From assembly GCA_965198065.1 (NCBI GenBank), contig CBDAON010000004.1, positions 1,696,001 through 1,760,000 on the forward strand: a stretch of DNA of 64,000 bases, in the 5' to 3' direction. The notes below the pieces were generated by a model. The model worked only from the letters and a program-made list of their open reading frames with translations. It ran no database searches and was not told where the DNA came from. A program made the translations under genes and the position numbers. Below, in pieces: positions 15,148 to 15,332 of the stretch; position 1 is the stretch's first letter, and every line of letters starts with the position of its first letter. The stretch comes from Longimicrobiales bacterium. GTDB taxonomy: Bacteria; Gemmatimonadota; Gemmatimonadetes; Longimicrobiales; Gaopeijiaceae.

Positions 15148-15332
15148 GAGCGCCGCCATGGGCGGCGTTCGCACGTTAGGAGGAGGCCGGCGGTGAAGCG
15201 CATTCCGACGTGGCTGTCGGCTGACACCTGGTCCGAACCGAACGCCCGGGTGCGAAGGGCGCGTCGATAGAGCCGAGCCGGACTCTCTCGGAAGGTTAAG
15301 CGCCCGCGCCTCCCGGCACGGGCCTTTTTTTT
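15148..15332 (+). ncRNA. candidate structured leader/attenuator RNA ending in an intrinsic terminator
   Basis: nested complementary segments plus a GCCCG..CGGGC hairpin followed by T8 (see findings). Confidence 0.45.

Follow-up and report, generated by a model that had tools for sequence, protein, structure and literature searches.

A candidate ribosome-controlled leader-peptide attenuator within a tRNA operon of Gemmatimonadota

The window analysed here, a stretch of 64,000 nucleotides from a Longimicrobiales genome of the Gemmatimonadota, carries a long tRNA operon on its forward strand. Initiator tRNAs are marked by an unpaired 1:72 position and by three G-C pairs in the anticodon stem, and both marks are found in the tRNA-Met(CAT) gene at 15057-15131, which identifies it as tRNA-fMet; they are absent from the two other CAT tRNAs of the source genome. 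This gene is preceded by a predicted sigma-70-type promoter (15016-15044, forward strand, 10 of 12 matches in a consensus scan) and followed by a spacer of 202 nt (15132-15333), the longest gap in the array. Beyond the spacer lie 16 tRNA genes on the same strand, from tRNA-Phe, which begins at 15334, to tRNA-Ser(CGA) (15334-17237), each being the sole gene for its own anticodon in the source assembly, which is 87.6% complete. The spacer opens with a hairpin at 15148-15170 that folds better than chance (z -3.56), and closes with a predicted intrinsic terminator at 15300-15332, composed of a hairpin (15300-15324; z -2.16 against shuffles) and a run of eight T residues (15325-15332) that ends one base before tRNA-Phe. 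The initial annotation had pointed to the unusual gap of about 200 nt ahead of 16 tRNAs, to its first hairpin and to the terminator-like hairpin with its T8, and all of these stand. Its remark that no promoter separates the terminator from tRNA-Phe is likewise upheld: the consensus scan detects no sigma-70-like promoter from 15044 to 16551 of the window, and none ahead of tRNA-Phe in any of 34 related genera (0/34), where the U-run lies 7-12 nt from tRNA-Phe throughout (34/34), so that a promoter cannot fit between the two. The operon promoter itself follows the strict pattern in 17 of these genera, while each of the 34 shows a TTGA -35 box on inspection.

A DNA similarity search matched the spacer over most of its length in the same genus only, and relatives were therefore gathered through a tRNA-Phe anchor, which matched 186 of 301 genomes in the window's own family (f1). 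A subset of these, 115 loci from 45 genera, forms the f1 set, to which three genomes contributed more than one locus; loci from genomes marked as unpublished were removed ahead of all counts. A tRNA-fMet gene stands upstream of tRNA-Phe in 115/115 f1 loci. The spacers between them are conserved at both ends and vary in the middle in both sequence and length (55-339 nt among the spacers displayed). For the RNA alignment one spacer was taken per genus (34 genera); the genera are related and kin are not independent, and the limits of the core described below were picked after inspection of the data. A further 46 spacers, many of them kin of the f1 set, were taken from a search with a tRNA-fMet-plus-hairpin pattern, for which 67 of the 80 matches listed were Gemmatimonadota or Longimicrobiales. 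The 24 sequencing runs listed consist of contigs throughout, those from RNA having small shares; among four compared with the spacer, none spans the middle of the leader. One contig of a relative, from run X4, extends from tRNA-fMet to tRNA-Glu and has 229 different letters in its spacer; it shows neither transcription nor read-through, and none of the conclusions below draws on these runs.

Within the spacer lies a short reading frame that the initial annotation had missed. It runs from a GTG start to a TAG stop on the forward strand (15193-15270), encodes the 25-residue peptide MKRIPTWLSADTWSEPNARVRRARR, and is preceded at a distance of 6 nt by the Shine-Dalgarno sequence AGGAGG (15181-15186), complementary to the 3' end of the source genome's 16S rRNA. 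Its conserved core, W-L-S-A-D-T-W-S (15211-15234), is the likely sensing stretch, and positions are numbered below from its D codon (15223-15225). The core, in the form W-x-x-A-D-T-W-S or D[TSA][WR]x, occurs 90-130 nt before tRNA-Phe in 82/115 f1 spacers and 34/45 genera. As D-[TSA]-[WR]-x served as the anchor pattern, conservation of its own columns is circular, and that of the other columns is independent; among the latter, W occupies D-4 in 30/34 genera and A or S directly precedes D in 29/34. In 81 of 82 spacers, and in 34/34 genera, the frame reaches a stop codon 11-17 codons beyond D, the exception (L047) appearing degenerate, while stops occur in the +1 frame in 3/34 genera and in the +2 frame in 19/34, 16 of the latter from a single TCT-AGC junction. 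A Shine-Dalgarno sequence with a start codon is in frame in 23/34 genera (0 and 2 for the other frames). Among the further spacers, core and stop were recovered in 22 of 46, with W at -4 in 21 of these 22. When the source genome is searched with the family profile, the window's leader alone matches well. Variant cores, W-G-T-x-x-N-P-W and D-S-D-A-R-T-C, were observed in L105-L107 and L071, where strong terminators are retained.

The pattern of substitution indicates that the leader frame is under selection at the protein level and that it is probably translated. For the leader frame, 29 disjoint within-genus pairs give a pN/pS of 0.17, versus 1.51 and 2.47 for the other frames, and 0.28 when the four unanchored codons are taken alone; between genera it is 0.43 and 0.69. 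Synonymous variety within the core is considerable (Asp as GAC 19 times and as GAT 15 times, Ser as TCN 23 times and as AGC 8 times). Such selection may in principle have nothing to do with regulation: the frame may encode a small protein with a role elsewhere or load ribosomes that shield the precursor, and the ratio of fMet to elongator tRNAs would then be set, without regulation, by the hairpin and U-run as a leaky terminator of fixed strength or as a nuclease site. Consistent with this unregulated arrangement, a protein search found 19 leader-like proteins of 30-43 aa already listed by gene callers, unnamed or as 'hypothetical'. The N-terminal part of the leader argues against it, being nearly neutral (pN/pS 0.72-0.92) and ranging in length from 7 to 29 codons.

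The structure of the spacer RNA bears on another proposal of the initial annotation, namely a riboswitch-like RNA or a stand-alone RNA processed from the operon. The nested pairings described there can indeed be written as complementarities, but as a fold of about 130 nt they lie at the level of chance (whole spacer, z -0.62; sub-regions, z -0.04 to -0.42). The outer stem (15182-15192 with 15301-15313) is absent from the minimum-free-energy fold of the whole spacer and is not conserved in relatives; it consists of the Shine-Dalgarno region paired with the loop side of the terminator, a duplex of -24.2 kcal/mol that is possible in the source genome, and at this site, the 5' end of the leader, the same-genus genome G001 carries about 100 extra bases and a longer frame. 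Across the 34 genera, the upstream segment that pairs best with the terminator arm has no fixed place, its distance from the core ranging between 20 and 140 nt, with 14/34 in the bin nearest to the core. The 5' hairpin is kept in 102/115 f1 spacers, leaderless ones included, and is independent of the reading frame; protection of the 5' end of the leader RNA, a pause or a weak stop are its possible roles.

Comparison of the window and eight related loci with the Rfam covariance models returned only tRNAs and weak terminator-shaped matches; for the riboswitch, 6S, SRP and T-box families nothing reached the gathering score and nothing credible appeared at E<=10. The initial annotation had recognised no 6S, SRP or T-box RNA either. 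A ligand-binding riboswitch, a T-box-like RNA or a stand-alone non-coding RNA such as a divergent 6S would find some encouragement in the terminator and its alternative pairing, and in a source genome that yields nothing above chance for 6S RNA in Rfam. Differences in length and sequence in the middle part of the spacer go beyond what an aptamer would tolerate. Conservation and covariation, for which the initial annotation had wished relatives to be examined, are both present, yet they follow the codons of one frame and an antiterminator in its 3' end. The same codon-like conservation, together with loss of the whole element from entire genera, led to rejection of the divergent 6S. RNA-only accounts are thus largely refuted and appear very improbable. 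Elsewhere in the source genome, the best match to the small SRP RNA (C4:838080-838176) scores 38.2 bits, the cut-off being 40.

The competing pairing that is conserved involves the 3' part of the leader frame. The initial annotation had proposed a terminator opposed by a mutually exclusive alternative fold, and the exclusivity has held, although the partner is this part of the frame and not the outer stem. The antiterminator strand (segment 2, 15247-15262, forward strand) pairs in the conserved register as 15247-15253 with 15300-15306, an alternative being 15257-15262 with 15300-15305. In the alignment the strand at D+8 to D+11 is paired with the 5' arm of the terminator in 80.4% of cells, 19 of which have changed on both sides, a result equalled in 0/500 shuffles and compared with 38-50% in slid controls. 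Since the pairs were named from the same sequences, the slid controls are lenient, and kin can beat shuffles, so that the covariation is support and not proof. In the window the pairing includes a G-C to C-G swap relative to the consensus. When each duplex is compared with dinucleotide shuffles of itself, no more than 14/34 genera reach p<0.05, and the window does not (p 0.16). The terminator (segments 3:4) is paired in 89% of cells, and reaches -12 kcal/mol or stronger in 81/82 framed spacers; the stop codon lies 22-37 nt from the terminator arm in 34/34 genera. A pause hairpin of segments 1:2 is paired in 77.9% of cells (6/500 shuffles), its covariation score being reached by 27/500, and is weak in the window. 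A further hairpin is predicted around the stop codon, inside the antiterminator (15264-15291, forward strand).

The consequences of ribosome position were modelled in silico for the 34 genera, with the RNA hidden up to 15 nt beyond the P-site. The mean terminator probability is 0.52-0.62 for ribosomes up to D+2, and rises to 0.71 at D+3, 0.85 at D+4 and 0.94-0.99 from D+5 onwards. In the model there is thus a clear trend, whereby a ribosome up to the core often keeps the terminator open and a ribosome past the core lets it form. Shuffling the tail of the leader with the ribosome at D+1 raises the mean from 0.52 to 0.88 (0.13 to 0.81 in the window). Before the 3' arm has been synthesised, the 5' arm is sequestered in 34/34 genera at D+1 versus 9/34 at D+6. 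In the window, when the upstream RNA is allowed to refold, the terminator is off at D-4 and D-1 and on from D+8, being mixed between these positions in a manner that depends on the footprint. With no ribosome, its probability is 0.11 in the window and exceeds 0.5 in 23/34 genera. Both the completeness of the switch and the exact codon at which it occurs are model-dependent: at equilibrium the switch is incomplete in about half of the genera, and with the ribosome at D+1 the terminator probability falls below 0.5 in only 16/34. The incomplete equilibrium switch also speaks for the unregulated stop; the conserved distance from stop codon to terminator, and an antiterminator conserved with compensatory changes, speak against it.

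The codons of the leader correspond to the tRNAs that it precedes. In the core (D-4 to D+4), 89% of 306 cases are cognate to tRNAs of the array, compared with 65% in the upstream part of the leader, 43% in its tail and 52% in the long frames of the source genome, which alone (G000) provides the codon background, also for the comparison with a second family below. Eight of the nine core columns are array-cognate (binomial 0.027, descriptive only), and in the window so are 11 of the 12 codons at 15205-15240 (D-6 to D+5); the core Thr codon ACC is read by no tRNA of the array. The downstream tRNAs by which most of these codons are read are those for Trp, Leu, Ser, Ala, Asp, Thr, Glu and Pro. The leader contains no tandem run of one codon, and its two Trp codons stand six apart within a mixed stretch.

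In family f6, which belongs to another order, an unrelated leader with the core AFFNFR(R)ER is found at the same place, after tRNA-fMet, in 10 of 12 spacers (L390-L402). It has a GTG at a fixed place, a terminator after it and an antiterminator of its own just past the stop codon. The f6 array, read over 1.5 kb only, comprises Asn, Phe, Trp, Thr-GGT, Arg-TCT, Glu and Ala-GGC. Codons read by the f1 array only and those read by the f6 array only stand at 181:12 in f1 cores and at 13:27 in f6 cores. The correspondence extends to isoacceptors: Arg in f6 cores is AGA in 11 of 14 cases (AGA makes up 0.3% of codons in G000), and Thr is ACC or ACT in 8/8, versus ACG in 40/52 in f1, whose array carries Thr-CGT (ACG has a genome share of 50%). 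In the model the f6 terminator arm is sequestered with a probability of 0.83-1.00 for ribosomes within the core and of 0.16-0.72 for ribosomes at the last codon (10/10); at full equilibrium the switch is clear in four of nine spacers computed. The f6 set is small and its spacers are related.

The same attenuator may instead be set by a ribosome held by its nascent peptide, the cue being a metabolite, an antibiotic or a general stress on translation. A fixed residue order, W-x-x-A-D-T-W-S, with synonymous freedom is as arrest-like as it is codon-sensor-like, and conservation stops at D+3, where the modelled switch starts. Chloramphenicol stalls ribosomes in a context containing A, S or T in the leaders of cmlA and cat, and the A, S or T before D resembles that context. 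In Anabaena a tRNA operon is induced by ribosome-targeting antibiotics (PMC8421152). TnaC of tnaCAB is also a peptide of about 25 aa, and its W12/D16 pair (PMC10941005) has the W-x-x-x-D spacing seen here in 30/34 genera, the only sequence feature that the two share. TnaC combines I19, P24 and a stop codon with control by Rho, whereas the present leader has Ser at D+3, Arg or Ala at D+8, a stop at D+11 to D+17 and an intrinsic terminator; ribosomes stalled at D+8 would here promote termination. Searches of Pfam and NCBIfam with six leaders found nothing at E<=10, and the diverged leaders of family f3 retain little beyond D-S/A-W. In f6 the leader in the corresponding position has a core of unrelated sequence, and codon choice follows the isoacceptors of each array. 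Codons matched to isoacceptors are invisible to a peptide, so that control by decoding speed is favoured over arrest by the nascent peptide, which we regard as improbable.

The distribution of the element provides the remaining evidence on an unregulated stop. The frame is absent from 29 f1 spacers (four more have a variant core) and from all 30 spacers of family f2, and a hairpin with a U-run nevertheless precedes tRNA-Phe in all of the latter and most of the former, being strong in L032, L089, L103 and L066. That these elements outlast the frame in f2 and several f1 genera is what a fixed, unregulated stop would predict. In lineages without the switch the tRNA array still lies behind the hairpin, which thus cannot be a tight stop there. 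A fixed, leaky stop remaining after loss of the switch fits these leaderless hairpins, and so does a processing signal. Terminator strength, however, tracks the frame, the median being -18.3 kcal/mol in the 82 spacers with it, -12.8 in the 29 f1 spacers without it and -11.4 in the 30 of f2; exceptions exist, and the genus-level rank test (p 0.002) treats kin that are not independent. As codon content also tracks the array in two orders, selection on the frame combined with an unregulated stop seems to us an unlikely explanation. In f3, D-S/A-W was found in five of 25 spacers, and in about 11, as judged by eye, a frame closes ahead of the terminator. The spacer of L369 (f3) contains a duplicated stretch with a partial 5' end of tRNA-Phe, perhaps an assembly or insertion scar. 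In L407 (f7) the spacer after tRNA-fMet is long and holds, by eye, a frame with many Phe, Asn, AGA and GAA codons, followed by a terminator; the other f7 spacers displayed are short, most of them mere hairpins. In families of other orders, f4 (43 loci), f5 (17), f8 (2), f9 (1) and f10 (4), the retrieved sequence 5' of tRNA-Phe contained no tRNA-fMet (0/67).

At the level of sequence comparison, the reading frame with its ribosome-binding site, the position of the core and stop codon, the terminator and the competing pairing can be taken as established. That the spacer is a leader-controlled attenuator, whether it is set by decoding speed or by an arrest peptide, appears quite probable; the more specific reading, a ribosome-controlled leader-peptide attenuator that feeds back on tRNA supply through decoding speed, is the one towards which the balance moderately tilts. 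In such a mechanism RNA polymerase would start at the promoter (15016-15044) and always make tRNA-fMet, and a ribosome would load at 15193. A ribosome moving fast through the core would cover the antiterminator strand, whereupon the terminator would form and transcription would stop at 15325-15332, whereas a ribosome slowed in the core would allow the antiterminator to form and the 16 tRNAs to be made. The supply of charged array tRNAs would in this way feed back negatively on their synthesis; such a sensor would respond alike to a shortage of tRNAs and to poor charging. The suggestion of the initial annotation that a conditional terminator uncouples initiator from elongator tRNA synthesis thus gains support as an idea, with the leader frame as its probable mechanism. 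A broader claim, for which we see a case only slightly better than even, is that a housekeeping tRNA operon of Gemmatimonadota is autoregulated through the supply of tRNAs, the codons of the leader co-evolving with the anticodons of the array down to the isoacceptor. The leader would then be a multivalent, ribosome-read sensor embedded in the precursor of the tRNAs, recast in another order to suit a different array.

Classical leader-peptide attenuators include the trpL, hisL, thrL and ilvGMEDA leaders, and in Escherichia coli the pheM-pheST leader acts on a synthetase, sensing the charged tRNA of one amino acid. Like pheM-pheST, the present leader would place a part of the decoding machinery under control by the level of charged tRNA, but the controlled genes are 16 tRNA genes instead of a synthetase serving one amino acid. 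T-box riboswitches choose between terminator and antiterminator according to tRNA status by direct binding of the tRNA. The choice proposed here would likewise depend on tRNA status, yet it would be read by a ribosome, its targets are tRNA genes and the window has no Rfam T-box match. The E. coli pheL-pheA attenuator combines a leader frame with segments 1:2, 2:3 and 3:4 and a U-run, and a stalled ribosome frees segment 2 (PMC3082878). The tRNA leader shares the short frame, the 2:3 and 3:4 pairings and the U-run, next to a weaker candidate for the 1:2 hairpin: its frame has a ribosome-binding site and is kept by selection, a 3:4 terminator with a U-run stands ahead of the controlled genes, and the exclusive 2:3 antiterminator has its 5' strand in the 3' part of the leader. 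It differs in that it would control tRNA genes, the sensor's own supply, that it sits within a tRNA precursor after the first tRNA, and that it carries a mixed, array-matching stretch. Tandem codons for a single amino acid before biosynthetic or synthetase genes, the classical hallmark, are not found; since there is no such run and the targets are tRNAs, the element is best described as a variant, and not a member, of the trpL/pheL type. The Anabaena trn operon of 26 tRNAs, which is repressed by TrcR and responds to translation stress (PMC8421152, PMC10272220), is similarly a long tRNA operon turned on by impaired translation. It differs in employing a protein repressor at initiation for a cryptic plasmid array, where a cis-acting leader would serve a housekeeping chromosomal array here.

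The matching of tRNA pools to demand is usually explained by growth-rate and stringent control at the promoter. If the proposed attenuator operates, tRNA supply would feed back directly on tRNA synthesis, for the sole copies of 16 tRNA genes, and the output of initiator and elongator tRNAs from one promoter would be separated. Two unrelated leaders fitted to two arrays would constitute a natural experiment, and an element of about 200 nt is small enough for reporter assays or purified components. Cultured isolates of the class Longimicrobiia are on record (PMC11651109). Within an incomplete literature coverage, no description was found of leader-peptide control of tRNA genes or of a tRNA operon; such control is known for amino-acid genes.

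Several further features of the operon and its surroundings were observed. Between tRNA-Asp and tRNA-Ala lies a boxA-like 12-mer (15772-15783, forward strand) which is one base off a motif in the rRNA leader of the source genome (G000:C4:2297360). A boxA-like match with at most two bases off is found 3' of tRNA-Asp in 31/76 loci, and a boxA-like core 3' of the terminator in 9 of 12 f6 spacers; these motifs suggest that rRNA-type antitermination may act on the tRNA array. A weak promoter-like site (16551-16578, 9 of 12 matches) precedes tRNA-Gln; as the same gap measures about 1-11 nt in G032 and G001, the site is not general, and it may be another boxA-like motif. The source genome has two calls each for tRNA-Tyr, tRNA-Asn and tRNA-Gly(TCC), and a doubtful second tmRNA call. 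Upstream of the operon, and divergent from it, lies tRNA-Pro(GGG) on the reverse strand (14874-14948), which also lies upstream of tRNA-fMet, at varying distance, in G001, G005 and G020. Just beyond the end of the array the reverse strand encodes a Mutator-family transposase (18749-20131) and a 1332-aa protein with Ig-like and leucine-rich-repeat regions (20774-24772), a possible sign of insertion at the last tRNA.
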